DNA of 64,000 bases from a virus (lineage: Duplodnaviria > Heunggongvirae > Uroviricota > Caudoviricetes). Location of the stretch: IMG/VR virus record IMGVR_UViG_3300031992_002114, positions 1 to 64,000 of that record. One strand, 5' to 3'. Positions 1 through 59,699 of the stretch are shown here, one piece after another (the first letter of the stretch is position 1; the number at the start of each line of letters is the position of its first letter). The position numbers and the translations under genes are program-made. The notes under the pieces were generated by a model, which ran no database searches, was not told the origin of the DNA, and saw only the letters and a list, made by a program, of their open reading frames with translations.

Positions 1-329
1 TTCTTGGAAGCTTCAGTAATACGCTGACGGAATACAGCTTTATCACCTTGAGCTACAATGCGGATATCAGCAAACTGACCATACTGCTCCATAACACGGT
101 TAGGAAGAATATCATCAATTGTCTCTTCAATTAGTTCAAAGATTTGATTTTTATTCTTGCGGAAACCCTTATAGTCAGGAGCTAGTAGATTAAATTGAGC
201 ACGAAGAGCTGAATTAACATCCTCTGCGGAAAAGCTCTCTTCTCCCTGATTAGTGGAATAAGTTAAAGGAGTTTTATGAGCAGCAGCAAAAGCAAGTTTC
301 TTTAAATCATTAAATTCCATAAGTTGCAT
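1..329 (-). CDS. N-terminal part of a structural protein (possibly major capsid); continues beyond window start
   Basis: ATG at 327-329 preceded by GGAGG; open minus-strand frame to position 1 (MQLMEFNDLKKLAFAAAHKTPLTY...); sits at end of head-gene block. Confidence 0.5.
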   Translation of the reverse strand, partial: MQLMEFNDLKKLAFAAAHKTPLTYSTNQGEESFSAEDVNSALRAQFNLLAPDYKGFRKNKNQIFELIEETIDDILPNRVMEQYGQFADIRIVAQGDKAVFRQRITEASK

Positions 330-876: not shown

Positions 877-2253
877 TTATCGTTTTACTAAACGGAGAAC
901 TGATAGAAGTGAATCTTCAGCATCTTCCGCATTATTTGTATTATCTAAAGAGAAAGACATTAGAGGAGATTCTTCCTCGACTTCTTCTTCTTTCTCTGGA
1001 AGTCCATCAACAGTTGAAAAATCTACATTCTTACGAACATAAATAAGAGCTAATTTCTCTTCAATTTGATCAAGAGAATATTCTTCTTTATGAGCAATAA
1101 TATCTGCTTTATCTGCATCTGTAAGCATATGATACTTAGCAATTAAAGCATCTTTTTGCTGATTTTCAAAAGAAAGTTTGAAAGCTCGAAGTTCTTCAAG
1201 CTCTTTTTGAATAGCAGAAAACTCTTCTATAGAAACAGTATGTTGCTCAAGATTCTTTTTACCTTTATCAACATCTGAATTAGTTCCTTCATCGTTTTGT
1301 TCTAATTCTTCGTCATCACCATCATCATTTTGATCATCATCATTTTGACCATCATTATCATTTTGTGTATCATCTTGAGAATCTGTAGTATCACTTTGAT
1401 TATCAGCGTCATTACCGTCTCCGGTGTTATCACCACCGTCTCCGCCATCTCCGCCATCATCAAATTGAGTTTCTACAAATTGAGTTTCAATTTCTTGTTC
1501 TGTTTCAACTTCTTTTTCTTCAAATTGAGTTTCTTGATTATCGTTCACTGTCACCCCTCCTTTACTGTATAGAGTTTGATTTAATTCTTGTACCATAGCG
1601 AACAATTTAGCAGTAAATTCACTATCCTTAGAAAATTGATTCTCTACATCAGTAATAGAGGCTCCTTCAAAACAAGGTTCGACATTATCTCCAAGAATAC
1701 ACAATTTGGAAAATACCGCATCATTAATTATAAAAAATTCCATTCCTGAGTTATTGTCTGTTGCCCAGTGACCTTCTAAATTTTTACTATCTAATTCCAT
1801 AGATTGACCCTTACCCTCATCAATTACTTGTTGAGCTTCTGGGTATTGATCTACTCATAGATAACCAGTTGTTAAAAGATATTCTCTTTCAGTTTCATTA
1901 CCAAATTCATCTGTATCAGTAAAAGTTTGGAATCAAATGCGAGCATCTGGAGCTACAAAACCATAAGGAACAGTTTTACAAGAAAAATGAATTTCTCCAT
2001 CTTCTATAGTAATTACATCTCCGTGGTCGCCAAAATCTTCTTTGTCTTTAAGATAAGCTCCAACAATTGGGCATCCCCGTAAAGTTTTTGACATTTCAAG
2101 AGCTGCATTCTTATCAATATATGAACCATTACGATTTTTACCGAGATAAAGTACTTTAATTTGACATTGGGCCATTAGAGGATTGATATCAAGTGGAGTT
2201 AACTCGATAAACTCCGGATCAGCAATTGTTTTAATTGATCTATTATTATTCAT
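877..2253 (-). CDS. head scaffolding / prohead-core-like protein with very acidic D/E/G/N/Q-rich middle (459 aa)
   Basis: ORFs 1933..2253 and 877..1800 are in the same frame, joined by one in-frame TGA and no TAA/TAG; acidic low-complexity region plus coiled-coil C-terminus is typical of scaffolds; RBS GGAGGG upstream. Confidence 0.6.
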
Positions 2254-2261
2254 CTACCCTC

Positions 2262-3806
2262 CTAACCTTCTGCTTGTTCATTTCTAATTGTCTTATCTGA
2301 TTTTTCACTTTCTGGTAATTCTGGTCTACCAGTTTTCTTTTCAGATTCTCCAGCTTTAGGAACTTCTTTAGCACTCATAGTTGAGGACATTTGAGGTGGA
2401 ATAAATAATTCATCTAAATGCATCATTCCATTTTCAAAAACAGCAGTAGCAATAATACTACTTTGAGTTTGTCCAAGAGCAATTTGAGGAAGAAGCTTAG
2501 AGAAACCAATTGTAGTTTGCTCTTTATAAAGCTTAGATAGTTCTTTATAATTATATCCTGTTGTTGGAAGAATTTGAACACGATACATTAAACGCTTTTT
2601 ATTTTTATTAAATGGTTTTAATAAATCTTCTGCGTATTCTTCAAACTGATAAATTAAATCAAGAACACTTGATTCATCATTTACAATAGACTTTTCTAAT
2701 GCAACATTTCCATCTGCATTAAATTGTAACTGAGAAACACCAGCTTCATTATATACACCACGTTCAACTTTTCCAAGTTGATCAACAGAACTTACATTAT
2801 TGCGGTCTGCCATATCTGCAACTTCTACATCTGCAAATGTTGATAAGACCCGCACACCAATAGATTCACCAATCATGCCTACTGCATTATTGTGAAGAGT
2901 TTGTACTTCATCAGTATCAAAAATTAAATCTCCATTTTTGTCTATTGGAAATTTTTGAATAAGAATTCTTAAAATTTGTTGCTCCATTTTTTTCTTATCT
3001 AATTCTTGCATATCTTGTAAATCCAAGAGCTTAGGAATAACTGGGAAGAAAATAGGAACATCAGAATTTCCTAAATTAAATTTAACAGCTTTTGTACAAT
3101 CTAAAAGGAATCAACCCATATCATCATTTGATGTATCTCTTGGTAAAGTTCCTTTCTTATAAGCTACATAAGCTTTTTGGAATTCTTTAGGAAACATTTT
3201 TAAAATTTTTATACGATATTCATTATTTGACGTTAAATCGTCAAAATATTTAACATTAAACTCTATCGCGGGACGACCATTTCATTTATATCTACTACGG
3301 CAATATTTAGGTGGTAATTCTTGAAGAAAAACCGCGTCCTTTTGTTCTAATTTATAACCATAATAGCATCCATTTTTAATTACTTTTAAAGCAATTTCTG
3401 AAAAACTTTTCTTTAATCTTGAATTTTCAAGTAAAACTGCGGCTTTAAGCCATCCTTCAATAACTTTCTCATCTTTTATTTTATTATCATATCTATTAGG
3501 TGTAATAAATCAGTCATATCTAAATAAGGTAGCAAGATATTTACATAATCTTTGATAAATACCATTTGATCTATAAAAATAATCTGAGATTAATCTTAAT
3601 GTTTCTAAATCATTTTTTTCAATAGCTCTTTCAATCTTTTCTCTATCATATTTCTTTTTGCGGGAAAGGCTATCAAAATAATCTAAATTTGAAACGACAT
3701 CATCTCTTAAAATTGATTTGCCAACTCTAATTTTATTAAAATTAGCTTTCTTTTTTGGGGTAATTATATTAAAATCTCTGGTATTTATATTTTTTGTATA
3801 AGCCAA
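2262..3806 (-). CDS. putative portal protein (~514 aa)
   Basis: ORFs 3510..3806 and 2262..3026 share a frame; the 484-nt gap has only TGA (3111, 3282, 3510) and no TAA/TAG on hand translation; position between scaffold and terminase; TAG stop at 2262. Confidence 0.5.
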
Positions 3807-3829
3807 ATTTATTTACACCCCCTGTCTAT

Positions 3830-4267
3830 TTAATATCCAGCAGCATTAAAAATATAGTCATAAGAAATCTTATTCTCATCATATCATGGAATTGCTACCA
3901 ATTTTAATCCATGTTTATCACAATACTTTCTTTTAGTTAAATCATTATGTTTCTGTCTTTGTAAACCTAATCTTCCACCAAATTTAGGTATTGCTTTATA
4001 ATGCTGTCTACCTTGAAATTCTATTAAAAAATCTATGTCTCCATCATCTGTAAAGACACAAAAATCAAATCTTAAATGACGACCTGACTCTGCAATCAAA
4101 TCGTCAAATTCATATTCTTCAGCAAATGGAATGTCATTATCTGAGAGTATATTATATATTTTAACTTCACCTGCGGAATCTCTCATTATAAATTCACTCC
4201 TTAATACATATTTAACTTTCAATTTATAATAAAAATTAAGCAAACTAAATAATTCTTTTTTGCCCAA
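3830..4267 (-). CDS. DUF559/Vsr-like PD-(D/E)XK endonuclease-domain protein (homing-endonuclease-like insert)
   Basis: Motif FDFCVF...DIDFLIEFQGRQHY...KD...KYCDKHGLKLVAIP resembles the DUF559 endonuclease fold; one in-frame TGA then TAA at 3830. Confidence 0.55.
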
Positions 4268-53300: not shown

Positions 53301-53801
53301 ATGGGTCTAAAAAAATATTCTAAAGAATGGTTAGAAGAGCTTTGTAAAGATAGTTTTTCTTATGCAGAAGTATTAAGAAAAGCAGGTAGAAAACAAGGCG
53401 GCGGTGCTCAAAAAACTTTGAGAGAAAAAATTGAGTTATACAATATTGATATTTCTCATTTTACAGGACAAAATTGGAGAAAAGGAAAAACTAAAAAATC
53501 TGATAGTAGACTTTTACAGCAAGGATTAAATCAAGAAAAATATCTCCTTGAAGAAGTTTTTGTAAAAAATAGTCCTGTTACTCAAAAAGTTTTAAGAGGG
53601 TATATCGAAAGACATTCTGTATTAGAATATAAATGTCAAAATTGTGGATGTAATGGTAATTGGCAAGGTGGAAAAATTGCTCTTGAAGTTCATCATATTA
53701 ATGGTGATAATAAAGACAATAGATTAGAAAATCTACAGTATTTATGTCCAAATTGCCATGCTTTAACTGATACTTATTGTGGCAAAAATAAAAAGTCCTA
53801 A
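53301..53801 (+). CDS. HNH endonuclease
   Basis: CQNCGC...LEVHHINGDNKDNRLENLQYLCPNCH. Confidence 0.7.
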   Translation: MGLKKYSKEWLEELCKDSFSYAEVLRKAGRKQGGGAQKTLREKIELYNIDISHFTGQNWRKGKTKKSDSRLLQQGLNQEKYLLEEVFVKNSPVTQKVLRGYIERHSVLEYKCQNCGCNGNWQGGKIALEVHHINGDNKDNRLENLQYLCPNCHALTDTYCGKNKKS

Positions 53802-54114: not shown

Positions 54115-54210
54115 ACTCCCATAGTGTAATGGTAGCACAGTGGTCTTCAAAACCATAGCAACCTGTGTCCAAAGCAGGCGGTCTCTGTTCGAATCGGAGT
54201 GGGAGTGCCA
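54115..54210 (+). tRNA. UGA-decoding tRNA (anticodon UCA), type II with long extra arm, Ser/Sec-like, discriminator G, CCA encoded
   Basis: Acceptor ACTCCCA/TGGGAGT; 3-bp D-stem; anticodon arm GTGGT-CTTCAAA-ACCAT; extra hairpin CCTGT-GTCCAAA-GCAGG; T-arm CTCTG-TTCGAAT-CGGAG. Confidence 0.65.
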
Positions 54211-54651: not shown

Positions 54652-54724
54652 CGGGATGTAGGGTAATTGGTAACCCCCTGCATTTGGGATGCAGTTATTG
54701 CACGTTCGAGTCGTGTCATCCCGA
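54652..54724 (+). tRNA. tRNA-Pro(UGG)
   Basis: Acceptor CGGGATG/CATCCCG; loop TTTGGGA; T-loop TTCGAGT. Confidence 0.6.
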
Positions 54725-54763
54725 GATTTTATTTATTTATTTAAAATATTCTTAAGAGGAAAA

Positions 54764-55339
54764 ATGGGAGTAAAATTATCACAAGAAGAAGTTATTAGAA
54801 GAATTAAAAAAAATTTTAAGCAAGATGTATCTCTTATTAGTGAATACAAAAATAAAAGAAGTAAAGTTAAATTACATTGTAATGAATGTGGATATGAATG
54901 AGAAGCTTCTGCTCAAACGGTTATTGATAATAATAGTTGTCATGTTTGTCCTAATTGTAATAATATAAAACAAAAATTTCATTGTGCTTATTGTAATAAA
55001 GAAATTTATAGAATTCCTTCTGAGATAAAAAGAAATAAAAGTGGTTATTTTTATTGTTCAAAAACATGTGGAAATTTACATAAAAATTTATTAAGAAAAA
55101 CATCAGGAGAATGAAATAATTCTAAAAATTATAGATTAAAAGCTTTTGAAAAATTAGAGCATTGTTGTGTTTCTTGTGGATGAAATGAAGATGAAAGAAT
55201 ATTAGAAGTTCATCATATAGATGAAAATAGAGATAATAATAATATAGATAATTTATGTATTCTTTGTCCTACATGTCATAGAAAATTAACTTCTCATTAT
55301 TATATATTGACACCCTCTTTTAAAGTAATTTTAAAATAA
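54764..55339 (+). CDS. HNH endonuclease (TGA-containing)
   Basis: CVSCGWNEDERILEVHHIDENRDNNNIDNLCILCPTCH. Confidence 0.6.
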
Positions 55340-56125: not shown

Positions 56126-56145
56126 AAAGAACAAAGGAGACAATA

Positions 56146-56675
56146 TGTCAGAAAAAGTAGGTATTGCTGCACCTTGAATTGATTATGCTCGTAAAGTTCG
56201 TGCTTTATTCGCAAATGATCCAGATGTAATTGTAGAATATGATAATGAAAATATGAAACTTAACTTGCGGGTCAATGGAACAGCAAAAGCAGATGCTCTT
56301 GCTCAACTTCTTCCAACAGAAAAAGAGTTTGGAAATGTAGTTCTTGCAATTAATGTTATTCCCACAAATGGTGGAAAAACATGTGCTAATCTTCTAAAAG
56401 ATGCTTTAATTGGTAACAATGCTTTTTATGATATTATTGATTTTACTAAAGATACTCCGTATCCAGATGTAGTATATGTAGTTTTTGATAATAATGTAGT
56501 TCAATATCCTAATGATAATCTTAGTCATTATGCGGGAGTAGAAACTACACTTTATGCGGATATTGCTAAAGAAGTTTTTGAAAATGTAGATGGTAATGTT
56601 TATTTTAATACTATTTACGATGAAGATAATGATCTTCATTCAGATATTCCTTCTGGAGTTTGGCCTGTAGATTAA
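56146..56675 (+). CDS. hypothetical protein (one TGA near N-terminus)
   Basis: ATG 56146 in frame with ORF 56253..56675. Confidence 0.5.
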
Positions 56676-57488
56676 AAATTTTTTTTGACAGATTGAATTA
56701 AAATATAATATAATATAAATACAGTGAGAGAGAAAAAAAATAGTTAGTTAAGACAGAAAATAATTTTTGACAAGATGATAGAAGATATGTTATAATATTA
56801 ATTGACAAGAGGGGACTTCAAAGAAACCGCGGAAATCTTTGAAGAGTGGTAACCGGCTCTCAGCGGCCTAGGAGACAAATACGGAATCCTAGATAGCGCG
56901 TGCCACGAAAGGAGTCATGACCTTTCTAAACAGCGAGAGATAGAATAACGAGGTGGTCTCTCGGGAAGTGTTACCTAAGTCAATTATTATCTGAGTCTGG
57001 TTTTCCTCAGATATAAAGTTAAAAAAGAAAAGTCCAATGTCTGTTACTCCACAGGCCACAAAAGGAGAAAAGACTTGGCCGTGAGAACGAGTCTATATGA
57101 AAGAACTCTCATATTTGTTTAGTTGGAGATACGGTATCGAAAGCCGTTTATCCCGATTATACTGGGATAATAGTTTAAAAGGTAAAAATATCAACTAACA
57201 AGCGCTTTACTCACATAGAGAGGACAGCTGTGTCGGATCAGTCCAATCAGTCCAATCAGTTGCGCAAGTGGTAGGAAAGGAGGCATCCGAAACTACTGCG
57301 ACATGGATACATAGAAGAGCCTTCACGTGGCGTATCTGTTTTTACTAATCTTCTTAATAGCCGAAGAGACGGCCTTAGCATTTTAGCTAAGAGAATGTAC
57401 CGCGAGAGATCGGACGGGTGAAACGATAACATCCTGAAAACAACATTAGGAAAGTAGACTCGCAACGCTTTCCAATAGGAGAAAAGAT

Positions 57489-57659
57489 ATGAAAAATTTT
57501 TTAGAAAAAGAAATAAAGAAATGTCATAGTAAAACAAGTTATGAAACTAAAGATATTGCTTCGCGGGAAGGGCATTTAATTTTAAATTATAAAGAATTTA
57601 GAGTTTATCAGTGTCCATATTGCGGGCAATGACATATTACTACTGGGTCTGTAGCTTAA
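57489..57659 (+). CDS. questionable small zinc-ribbon ORF overlapping 5' end of tRNA-Met
   Basis: RBS AGGAG; CHSK...CPYCGQW; last 15 nt are tRNA sequence. Confidence 0.25.
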
Positions 57660-57720
57660 TAGGTAGAGCACAAACCTCATAAGTTTGGGGATATCAGTTC
57701 AATTCTGATTGGACCCACCA
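57645..57720 (+). tRNA. tRNA-Met(CAU) (initiator, elongator or Ile2 not resolved)
   Basis: Loop CTCATAA; T-loop TTCAATT; CCA. Confidence 0.55.
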
Positions 57721-57873: not shown

Positions 57874-58941
57874 AAAATTTTTTTTGACAATTTAAATTAA
57901 AATAGGATATAATAATTATAGAGTGATTGAAAGAGTAGTTACTTCTAGGATGAATAATGTAATAGACAATAAAACTATTCTTTTATAATATCCTCTAAAG
58001 TGTGTTATAAAATACAGAGTGATTGGAAAACAGTTACTTCTTATATGATAAAATATAATTTTTAAAAGTTTAGCTAAGACTATTTAATTTAGCTCCATTT
58101 CAATACTGTTTTCAATATTTCCTCTTATAGCTCTTTGAAAGAAGAATATCAAGGACTTTATGAAGCATGTGCATTCGCAATAACATGCGGTCATGCGGGC
58201 CAGTCAAAAGAGTAGACTTTCATGGGATACTTTGAAAGAAAGCTTTATTATTTTAGGTAACTAAAATAATAGAAGAGATAAAAGTCTCAACTAAAATCTG
58301 GTTAGCATTTAATTATTTTGCTATTAAAAGGTAATGTCTTGTCGCTTTCATAATAGGCGCTTCCAGCGGAAGTTTGAATCCTATAAGTCTATAAGCTGGT
58401 AACTTATAGATACTGTAGGAAATACCAAATAAGAAAGTTTCTAGTTGCGGGAAAGTGATTTCCTTATAAGACAAGTTCAATGTGCGAGTAGCCCTAATCT
58501 AGAATGATAAACGTGAGCCTGCGTTAATGGTTATGATTCTGAAGATTATAATAATTAACTTACTGAATGTTGGGTGAAAGTTAAAGGTAATCAATCCTTT
58601 TATAGAGGTGGTATTAAAGTGATGCGGTAGGCAGAATGAAAAACTCACCTGTGGGTTGGACAGCTTTAATTAACTGGGGTAAAAAGTTATAGGCTCGCTA
58701 CCTATAGCTCAGTTTTATCTCCTATATGACTGAATATTAAAACAAAATAATTAAGTAGAACGAAGGTTCCATAAAATCTTTGATATTCTTCTTTTAAGGT
58801 GATTGTAGAAAAAGTTACTTCCCATCAATATGTTACAAGTTCGATTCTTGTTTTTGCCGCTATTTTGGCAGAATAACTCAATTGGTAGAGTGATTGATTT
58901 TTTACTTTTTCTTTTATTTCCCTTAAAGGAGGGTTTTGAAA

Positions 58942-59623: not shown

Positions 59624-59699
59624 GCGGCGGGGTGAAACGGTTTCCACGCCGGTCTCATAAGCCGGAGACAGTACGTTCGACTCGTACCGCTCGCAACCA
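59624..59699 (+). tRNA. irregular tRNA-like element with CAU anticodon arm (aberrant D region, imperfect acceptor)
   Basis: CCGGT-CTCATAA-GCCGG; T-arm GTACG-TTCGACT-CGTAC; 3' ...CGCTCGCAACCA; D region is a tight hairpin GTGAAACGGTTTCCAC. Confidence 0.35.

Follow-up and report, generated by a model that had tools for sequence, protein, structure and literature searches.

The 64,000-nucleotide (nt) window analysed here, positions 1 to 64,000 of the Caudoviricetes record IMGVR_UViG_3300031992_002114 in IMG/VR, almost certainly carries a conserved structured RNA gene at positions 56800-57478 on the plus strand. With moderate confidence, we read its product as a new modular structured phage RNA with an architectural role, which would pair with further copies of itself through hairpin loops. 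A preliminary description of this DNA had proposed a structured RNA candidate here, to be checked by an Rfam search with Infernal and by a covariation comparison with related phages. The Infernal search places the candidate region in no Rfam family, and the comparison supports a structured RNA, with compensatory changes of base pairs in every major helix across about nine independent relatives. The preliminary description had missed the tRNA-like domain, the pseudoknot, the loops with switching palindromes, the adjacent ROOL RNA and the use of genetic code 4 in the flanking genes.

The RNA gene and its locus

The RNA is the first element of an RNA island, in which it is followed by a small open reading frame (ORF), tRNA genes, a ROOL RNA and a Y-RNA-like element. 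It occupies most of a non-coding gap (56676-57488), the RNA proper extending over about 56800-57478. The features of the locus are:

56145-56675: upstream gene of 176 amino acids (aa), which bounds the gap
56685-56714, plus strand: promoter 1 (TTGACA, 18 nt, TATAAT), 12 of 12 consensus positions; the same sequence stands before the homologous RNA in the related lineages L041 and L045
56767-56796, plus strand: promoter 2, proximal (TTGACA, 18 nt, TG-TATAAT), 12 of 12 consensus positions, extended -10
56800-57478, plus strand: whole structured RNA, ~680 nt, GC-rich, with no ORF, no Rfam family, and homologues that show covariation
57489-57659, plus strand: zinc-ribbon ORF of 56 aa in code 4, ribosome-binding site at 57477-57481, PHROG 15216 (function unknown); context, outside the RNA

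The preliminary description saw this region as one gap between tRNA-Leu and tRNA-Met; the non-coding stretch holds, but the gap is not uninterrupted, the 176-aa and 56-aa genes bounding it. As it had noticed, the GC content is raised, at 0.41-0.465 in 56800-57400 versus 0.22-0.30 in the flanking coding DNA. Six-frame translation of 56800-57478 under codes 11, 4, 15 and 25 gave no credible ORF, in agreement with the earlier reading. The longest open stretches are an 84-codon stop-free plus-strand frame (code 4) and the antisense ORF 57256-57537 that had already been named.

Both TATAAT-type promoters that had been proposed proved to be perfect sigma-70-type promoters, arranged in tandem, and transcription from promoter 2 is predicted to start at about 56800-56804. 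Tandem promoter pairs also lie upstream of the RNA in L002, L017, L034, L036, L041, L043 and L045. A third sigma-70-type promoter with 12 of 12 consensus positions (57884-57913) stands ahead of ROOL.

The phage genome uses code 4, with TGA as a sense codon. The upstream 176-aa gene reads through an in-frame TGA (within IAAPWIDY), and the aligned codon of its L036 homologue is TGG (compared by eye), so TGA is most simply read as tryptophan. The window also contains a 96-nt tRNA with anticodon UCA (54115-54210, plus strand), which ARAGORN labels 'SeC'.

Relatives of the RNA

Homologues are found in about nine lineages besides that of the window: L001, L002, L017, L033, L034, L036/L046, L041, L043 and L045. 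The RNA measures ~0.7 kb in the window and 0.9-1.1 kb in the relatives. L001 is a near-identical phage, with 97.6% identity over the locus versus 99.5% in the RNA region; the RNA itself differs by three substitutions and the insertion or deletion of one 9-nt repeat unit, and the downstream ORF by 7 substitutions in 170 nt.

L002 was found through the upstream 176-aa protein and has a longer homologous RNA after the same gene and the same promoter pair. Synteny of this protein revealed the RNA in L001 and L002 only; L003, L005, L008 and L009 have the protein without the RNA. A search with the longest shared motif added L017 (viral contigs) and L033, L034 and L036 (metagenomes), and a small basic ORF that follows the RNA retrieved L041, L043, L045 and L046. 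The conserved hairpin block HB, described below, also served as a search pattern. Candidates L011-L032 (except L017) and L037-L038 were discarded as chance matches of the 16-mer and 17-base pattern scans, and the module-M pattern returned nothing in viral contigs. In GenBank phages, blastn found nothing similar to the window RNA or to the long L034 form. Exact-pattern scans of species-representative bacterial genomes did not find the RNA, and therefore no prophage or host was identified.

Secondary structure and covariation

Folding of the single sequence gave z-scores of -1.65 for the plus strand and -1.73 for the minus strand, which do not discriminate; since fold energy is uninformative in this way, support for the structure comes from the comparison with relatives. 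The predicted elements, all on the plus strand, are:

56800-56985: 5' domain D1, a multi-helix junction with H1-H4 (RNAalifold, covariation)
56816-56844: hairpin H1, with the palindrome CCGCGG in the loop (56827-56832); pairing of the stem is kept throughout, with a different sequence in almost all lineages
56867-56892: hairpin H2, the stem of which covaries (CTAGGA/TCCTAG, TAGGG/CCCTA, TTGGC/GCCAA)
56907-56926: hairpin H3, with the 8-nt loop AGUCAUGA and the palindrome TCATGA (56915-56920); the stems covary; candidate symmetric kissing loop
56933-56963: hairpin H4, double compensatory changes in six of six predicted pairs
56989-57012: hairpin H5, ATCTGAG/CTCAGAT here and ATCTGCG/CGCAGAT, TGTCT/AGACA and others elsewhere
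57039-57065: hairpin HB (57039-57056; GUCUGU-UACUCC-ACAGGC) followed by CACAAAAGG, the most conserved block of the family
57071-57094 and 57095-57114: two hairpins from the constrained fold, present in the window lineage and absent from the other aligned lineages
57121-57196: circularly permuted tRNA-like domain with a closed acceptor stem (covariation, ARAGORN, model R1)
57225-57262: hairpin with the invariant stem CAGCTG/CAGTTG and a loop of variable length and sequence that holds a 9-nt tandem repeat (57237-57260)
57268-57299: hairpin H7, GTAG/CTAC changing to GTAAT/ATTAC in L017 and GGA/TCC to AGA/TCT in L036 (by eye, moderate support)
57305-57354: H-type pseudoknot, covariation in six lineages
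57358-57478: lineage-specific 3' tail with hairpins at 57360-57373, 57374-57391 and 57449-57473

D1 is closed by helix P1 (56800-56806 with 56979-56985; AATTGAC/GTCAATT), inside which lies P2 (56848-56853 with 56970-56975; GGTAAC/GTTACC). RNAalifold predicts 25 pairs in the domain, 16 of them with double compensatory changes. Across the alignment 96.4% of cells are paired, compared with 40-53% in slid controls, and none of 500 shuffles reaches the observed values. By manual check, P1, H2 and H5 covary as well. The palindromes quoted in the preliminary description thus correspond to real hairpins, H1 and H2, which are conserved with compensatory changes in the relatives. The block around HB is near-identical in all lineages that have the full-length RNA except the L002-type RNA of L043. 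A fold constrained to the comparative helices has a free energy of -169.8 kcal/mol, compared with -180.4 kcal/mol without constraints, a cost of ~10 kcal/mol.

The tRNA-like domain begins and ends with a connecting stem (57121-57126 with 57191-57196). In between follow a variable region of 4 nt, a T arm (57131-57147), an acceptor-like stem of 7 bp (57148-57154 with 57164-57170) closed by a 9-nt loop, and a D arm (57173-57189) that contains GG, is preceded by UA and leads back to the connecting stem. Each of five lineages keeps the 22 pairs of this cloverleaf in full, and six of the pairs show double changes. When the domain was re-permuted in silico, with an artificial anticodon loop and ACCA added, ARAGORN called the construct a tRNA in all lineages tested. 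In its native order it is called by neither ARAGORN nor the Rfam tRNA model (RF00005), the acceptor being closed by a loop and the anticodon stem entering the body of the RNA. A covariance model built from the module, R1, scores the window copy at 94.5 bits. The T loop (57136-57142) reads AUCGAAA, with A at positions 54 and 60, and AUCAAAA in L041 and L045; the A54/A60 pattern is typical of eukaryotic initiator tRNA.

The pseudoknot consists of stem a (57305-57310 with 57332-57337; GGAUAC/GUAUCU), stem b (57313-57318 with 57349-57354; AGAAGA/UCUUCU), which stem a crosses, and an inner stem c (57319-57321 with 57329-57331; GCC/GGC) around CACGTG. Its 15 pairs are 100% paired in six lineages, five of them with double changes (for example GAUAGA/UCUAUC and GGUAGA/UCUACC). 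None of 500 shuffles reaches the observed value, and slid controls pair at 27-51%. Upstream of it, the tandem repeat seen in the preliminary description is confirmed, with a period of 9 (ATCAGTCCA) and a position in a hairpin loop; the repeat loop of L001 has one unit fewer. The 3' tail is identical in L001 and 93.5% identical to positions 3854-3961 of L043, and the other lineages have an unrelated tail.

The pseudoknot, T arm and connecting stem each contain invariant G-U pairs. On the other strand these would be A-C, and therefore the plus strand is the functional one.

Self-complementary loops

The 6-nt core of the H3 loop reads TCATGA in the window and TGGCCA, TGATCA, TAGCTA or TGATCC in other lineages, so that four of the five forms are perfect palindromes. 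The changes between them are symmetric double substitutions: 17 of 18 symmetric cells are Watson-Crick, a value matched by 35 of 20,000 column shuffles. Nucleotides this close to one another within an 8-nt loop cannot pair mutually, and the window RNA holds no second copy of the H1 or H3 palindrome with which an intramolecular pairing could form. The H1 loop carries CCGCGG or CGGCCG, which again differ by a symmetric double change.

The loop L9.3 of OLE RNA is likewise a hairpin loop with a 6-nt self-complementary core that undergoes symmetric double substitutions (GGCC, GAUC, AGCU), and the dimerisation initiation site of HIV-1 is a further hairpin loop with such a core. In contrast to the contacts of these two RNAs, with which there is no homology, the one proposed here is predicted from sequence only. 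For OLE and GOLLD, in which cryo-EM shows kissing loops between molecules, switching between GGCC, GAUC and AGCU served as corroboration, and for the OLE loop as evidence of a loop-loop homodimer (Kretsch et al., 2025; PMC12286853). As the switching pattern is the same, we infer homo-oligomerisation of the RNA, and because each molecule has two independent self-complementary loops, assemblies beyond dimers would be possible.

We hypothesize that the two strong tandem promoters transcribe the RNA as the first element of the island, and that its modules would fold independently: the 5' multi-helix domain, the conserved hairpin, the tRNA-shaped domain and the pseudoknot. The tRNA-shaped domain has its acceptor stem closed by a loop and is joined to the body at the position of the anticodon stem. 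Copies of the RNA may then pair through their self-complementary loops, most clearly H3 and also H1, to yield dimers or higher assemblies like those of OLE, ROOL and GOLLD. Such an assembly could display the tRNA mimic for tRNA-recognising factors to bind or cut. What the analysis shows is the gene with its strand and helices, the pseudoknot, the tRNA-like fold and the switching of the palindromes, whereas self-association, display or processing of the mimic, the cellular role and any connection with Ro60 or RNA repair are inferred.

Modular organisation

Blocks of the RNA are shuffled, duplicated or missing between lineages. A module with the GGAGUAGCUACC hairpin lies before HB in L033 and L034 and after HB in L002, and L017 has two tRNA-like units in tandem. 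In L043, an apparent ordinary tRNA cloverleaf (seen by eye from the sequence, not with a tRNA finder) is nested beside the closed tRNA-like domain. The same contig contains, besides a full L002-type RNA, a second, 'mini' RNA (3600-3960, plus strand) just upstream of its ROOL. In this mini RNA the equivalent of window positions 56923-57077 is joined directly to that of 57380-57487, without the tRNA-like domain and the pseudoknot. From this junction, window positions 57078-57379, from the tRNA-like domain to the pseudoknot, behave as an inserted cassette.

Several observations weigh against an architectural, self-pairing RNA. Total 6-nt palindromes do not exceed shuffles in four of six lineages, the window included, and the argument for self-association therefore draws on the H1 and H3 loops only. 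Of these, H1 shows a single switching event that 1309 of 20,000 shuffles match and that is weak by itself, and the H3 palindrome is imperfect in L033. The CACGTG of the pseudoknot is lost in L043. The start predicted for the proximal promoter of the window would fall within P1, in its 5' strand. The mini form of L043 has neither the tRNA-like domain nor the pseudoknot and, with modules shuffled and sometimes missing, no single one can yet be called essential. The family is rare, with about ten lineages, and the shuffle controls overstate significance because the sequences are related.

Relation to known RNAs and alternative readings

At curated thresholds, none of the 4227 families of Rfam 15 matches the candidate; the search otherwise reports 25 tRNAs and one ROOL in the window. 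With relaxed filters and E<=10, matches in the candidate are at chance level, headed by the CPEB3 ribozyme with 16 bits, and five divergent homologues and the tRNA-like module taken alone are likewise without an Rfam family. Models of RNase P RNA and of group I and group II introns give no match at E<=10, which rules out the weak resemblance to RNase P raised in the preliminary description. The RNA is thus a new family within a known kind, the large ornate phage RNAs of tRNA islands, and belongs in full to no named family. It resembles ROOL and GOLLD in setting, and probably in self-assembly, and YrlA in one domain.

Among the alternatives, the RNA could be a precursor that is cut at the tRNA-like domain: RNase P would cleave the acceptor-closing loop, and trimming of the 3' side and addition of CCA would give a two-piece RNA or two RNAs. 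We regard this as possible and rather unlikely, and as compatible with an architectural, self-pairing RNA, not exclusive of it. The acceptor-like stem, 7 bp in the window and 7-8 bp in other lineages, is stacked on a proper T arm, and two-piece tmRNAs offer a precedent. They mature by such a cleavage from permuted genes: in the precursor the 5' acceptor strand comes after the T arm and the 3' acceptor strand, and the loop that joins the two strands is removed. Unlike these, the module has a full D arm, no tag reading frame and an acceptor (GGGAUAA/UUAUCCC) with G3-C70 instead of G3-U70, and neither ARAGORN nor Rfam reports a tmRNA here. A further parallel is the YrlA RNA of M. smegmatis, with a closed acceptor of 7 bp: in vitro, RNase P cuts it at the predicted site, and in vivo it is cleaved and receives CCA (PMC4201824). 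Since the module shares the 7-bp stem, processing by RNase P is plausible, and in L043 the nested tRNA cloverleaf would force processing at that place. On the other hand, YrlA of S. Typhimurium and Yrn1 of D. radiodurans escape such cleavage (PMC4201824), CCA is not encoded, and processing at the module cannot be general in a family in which L002 and the L043 mini form do not have it.

An unlikely reading is that of a giant Y-RNA-like partner of a phage Ro60 protein, in which the tRNA-like domain would be the effector, a GNCGAAG-type motif would bind Ro60 and the rest would serve as a scaffold. YrlA RNAs, which partner Ro60, contain a variable region, T arm, closed acceptor and D arm (PMC4201824), the order found in the tRNA-like domain, and in both the remainder of the RNA continues from the position of the anticodon stem. 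The window encodes a TROVE/Ro60 protein (Rsr orthologue; 38013-39464, plus strand) of 483 aa with a DVSGSM motif and a Pfam score of 58.9 bits (cut-off 23). Model R1 also matches closed tRNA-like elements outside the large RNA, among them positions 58820-58902 (41 bits), within an element (58796-58923) to which the Rfam YrlA model gives 32.5 bits (E 9.5e-5), short of its gathering score, 69. In YrlA a GNCGAAN0-1G motif close to the 5' end is the putative Ro60 contact. GUCGAAG stands just 5' of HB in most lineages; the window has GUCCAAUG there and GCCGAAG at 57360.

Against a giant Y RNA, the module itself (57085-57235) has no match to the YrlA model (RF02553) at E<=10, and the RNA, at 680-1100 nt versus ~110 nt, is 6-10 times as long as any Y RNA. 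The TROVE gene lies on the same strand 17.3 kb upstream, whereas YrlA genes lie within ~4 kb of the Ro60 gene (PMC4201824). The 7-nt motif is short and variably placed, with no copy near the 5' end, and the ends of the RNA form no clear Ro60-binding stem. R1 detects no closed tRNA-like elements near the TROVE genes of L039, L040 and L042. Phages with TROVE are very common (>2600 relatives of the protein in public data, many on phage contigs of 130-150 kb) and the RNA is rare. Finally, the smaller YrlA-like RNAs of the same island are the more obvious partners of Ro60.

One of these smaller elements, 58796-58923 (plus strand), lies directly 3' of ROOL, and a long stem pairs its two ends. A closed tRNA-like element also follows ROOL in L041, L043 and L045. 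Stand-alone closed permuted tRNA-like genes were seen at 60379-60453 (plus strand) of the window, at 3123-3045 (minus strand) of L017 and at 189-269 (plus strand) of L046. Those of L017 and L046 have their own consensus promoter, that of L046 also a T-run, and tRNA finders miss all three.

It is improbable that the region, instead of being a free-standing RNA, serves the small ORF and tRNA operon downstream as a long structured 5' leader, controlling their translation or stability. Every lineage has a small ORF after the RNA. In the window no terminator separates the two, the zinc-ribbon ORF is probably co-transcribed with the RNA, and the hairpin at 57449-57473 abuts the ribosome-binding site. 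In most lineages the ORF is a very basic one of 40-47 aa (MSxLEVLIxKRNRLLQNGKNTEGSGVIRKxDRKIRxLEK; 2476-2607 in L002, and downstream of the RNA in L034, L036, L041, L043 and L045). It could be an RNA-binding partner. However, the zinc-ribbon ORF of the window is unrelated to it, which leaves one RNA core in front of two different ORFs, and P0154 contigs and L042 have the basic ORF but not the RNA; for these two reasons the leader reading is weak. In L034, moreover, a terminator (a stem and T9) separates RNA and ORF, and a length of 700-1100 nt, together with the pseudoknot and the tRNA mimic, far exceeds what any known leader needs.

That the RNA is a highly divergent GOLLD or ROOL missed by the Rfam models is very improbable. 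The size is comparable and the habitat is the same: the RNA sits beside ROOL in a phage tRNA island, with 25 tRNA genes at 53-60.7 kb around it and an identified phage terminase. Like ROOL, it is a large ornate RNA of phage or prophage tRNA islands, and like GOLLD, which reaches 800 nt or more, it combines a conserved and a variable part. ROOL forms homo-oligomers via kissing loops and A-minor contacts, and GOLLD sometimes has tRNAs nested in its linker and symmetric kissing loops backed by palindrome covariation (PMC12286853). The tRNA-like insert and the symmetric kissing-loop signature of the present RNA recall the latter, and its conserved core with exchangeable regions loosely resembles the conserved 3' and variable 5' parts of GOLLD. 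Yet the 5' domain is here among the parts present in every full-length lineage, and the insert is a closed permuted tRNA mimic instead of an ordinary tRNA, except in L043.

The searches also separate the families. The ROOL model (RF03087, gathering score 99.1 bits) has no match at E<=10 in 56600-57700, and the GOLLD model (RF01998) has none in the window, L033, L034 and L036 (E<=5-10) or in L002 and L017 (E<=1). Six divergent copies searched with relaxed filters are thus without a match, whereas the same searches score the true ROOLs of the window and of L036 at 297.6 and 278.6 bits. The separation from GOLLD, which is further characterised by helices P1-P27 and a D7 14-mer architecture, is by Rfam model. 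The ROOL model shows no match in sequence or structure, and the helices of ROOL differ; compared with ROOL, the present RNA adds an embedded tRNA-like domain and exchangeable modules, and its oligomerisation is a proposal from its loops. The ROOL of the window (58141-58788, plus strand) is full-length (model positions 1-574), has its own promoter and lies 660 nt downstream of the RNA; that of L036 lies at 2352-3012.

The least probable reading, a non-functional region (decayed debris of the tRNA array, an element that acts as DNA through palindromes bound by protein, or a gene whose genetic code went unrecognised), could appeal to restriction-site-like palindromes and to a module derived from a truncated tandem tRNA duplication, with two units head to tail in L017, but can practically be set aside given compensatory changes that keep >96% of pairs across lineages differing by 15-35%, strand-specific G-U pairs, the absence of an ORF under four codes and strong, conserved, dedicated promoters.

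Neighbouring genes and further observations

The phage also encodes an RNA ligase (PF09414; 26518-27489, plus strand) and a calcineurin-like metallophosphoesterase (35529-36347, plus strand), which together with Ro60 look like an RNA-repair gene set. Within the tRNA array lie HNH-endonuclease-like ORFs (53301-53801 and 54689-55339, plus strand), and GIY-YIG genes are similarly placed in L002, L041 and L042; these are probably homing endonucleases. A reverse transcriptase gene (RVT_1; 45800-46879, plus strand) stands just upstream of that of a 1230-aa fibre protein with collagen repeats (48155-51847), and the two may form a diversity-generating retroelement.

The terminase is closest to those of Firmicutes phages of 120-140 kb (Enterococcus, Geobacillus, Alicyclobacillus), and the relatives carry a sortase, an LPXTG protein and endolysins with ChW repeats, which fit a Gram-positive host. 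The window has a sortase gene (34648-35451, plus strand) and a gene for a 668-aa LPSTG-anchored pilin-like surface protein (60616-62622, plus strand).

Three further RNA matches were recorded. Rfam finds an extra tRNA in the window at 59624-59695 (plus strand, 38 bits) that ARAGORN misses. L033 has a short match to the tmRNA model at 990-1068 (minus strand, 50 bits; gathering score 47), and L036 a weak match to an HDV-like ribozyme at 3338-3403 (plus strand, 28 bits; gathering score 44).

Implications

Only a handful of natural RNA-only multimers are known, and the phage examples, ROOL and GOLLD, are without a known function. If the architectural, self-pairing reading is true, the RNA would be a third, unrelated family in the same niche, with the same palindrome-switching signature. 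Such an RNA would here be physically linked to a Y-RNA-type tRNA mimic, in a phage that encodes Ro60 and an RNA ligase. This may provide a handle on function, through the binding of tRNA-handling enzymes or Ro60 and through processing by RNase P.

We speculate, as a doubtful extension, that the RNA represents a further self-assembling class beside the cage-forming ROOL and GOLLD. It would form a closed multimer held by multiple loops, which would display Y-RNA-type tRNA mimics or release them after nicking by RNase P. The multimer would cooperate with the repair set of phage Ro60 and RNA ligase, and possibly with ROOL, in dealing with damage to tRNA or RNA during infection.

The interest for RNA structural biology and phage biology is high, tempered by the rarity of the family. 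The RNA would be a fresh target for cryo-EM, and its naturally swapped and deleted modules would supply a ready-made series of mutants.

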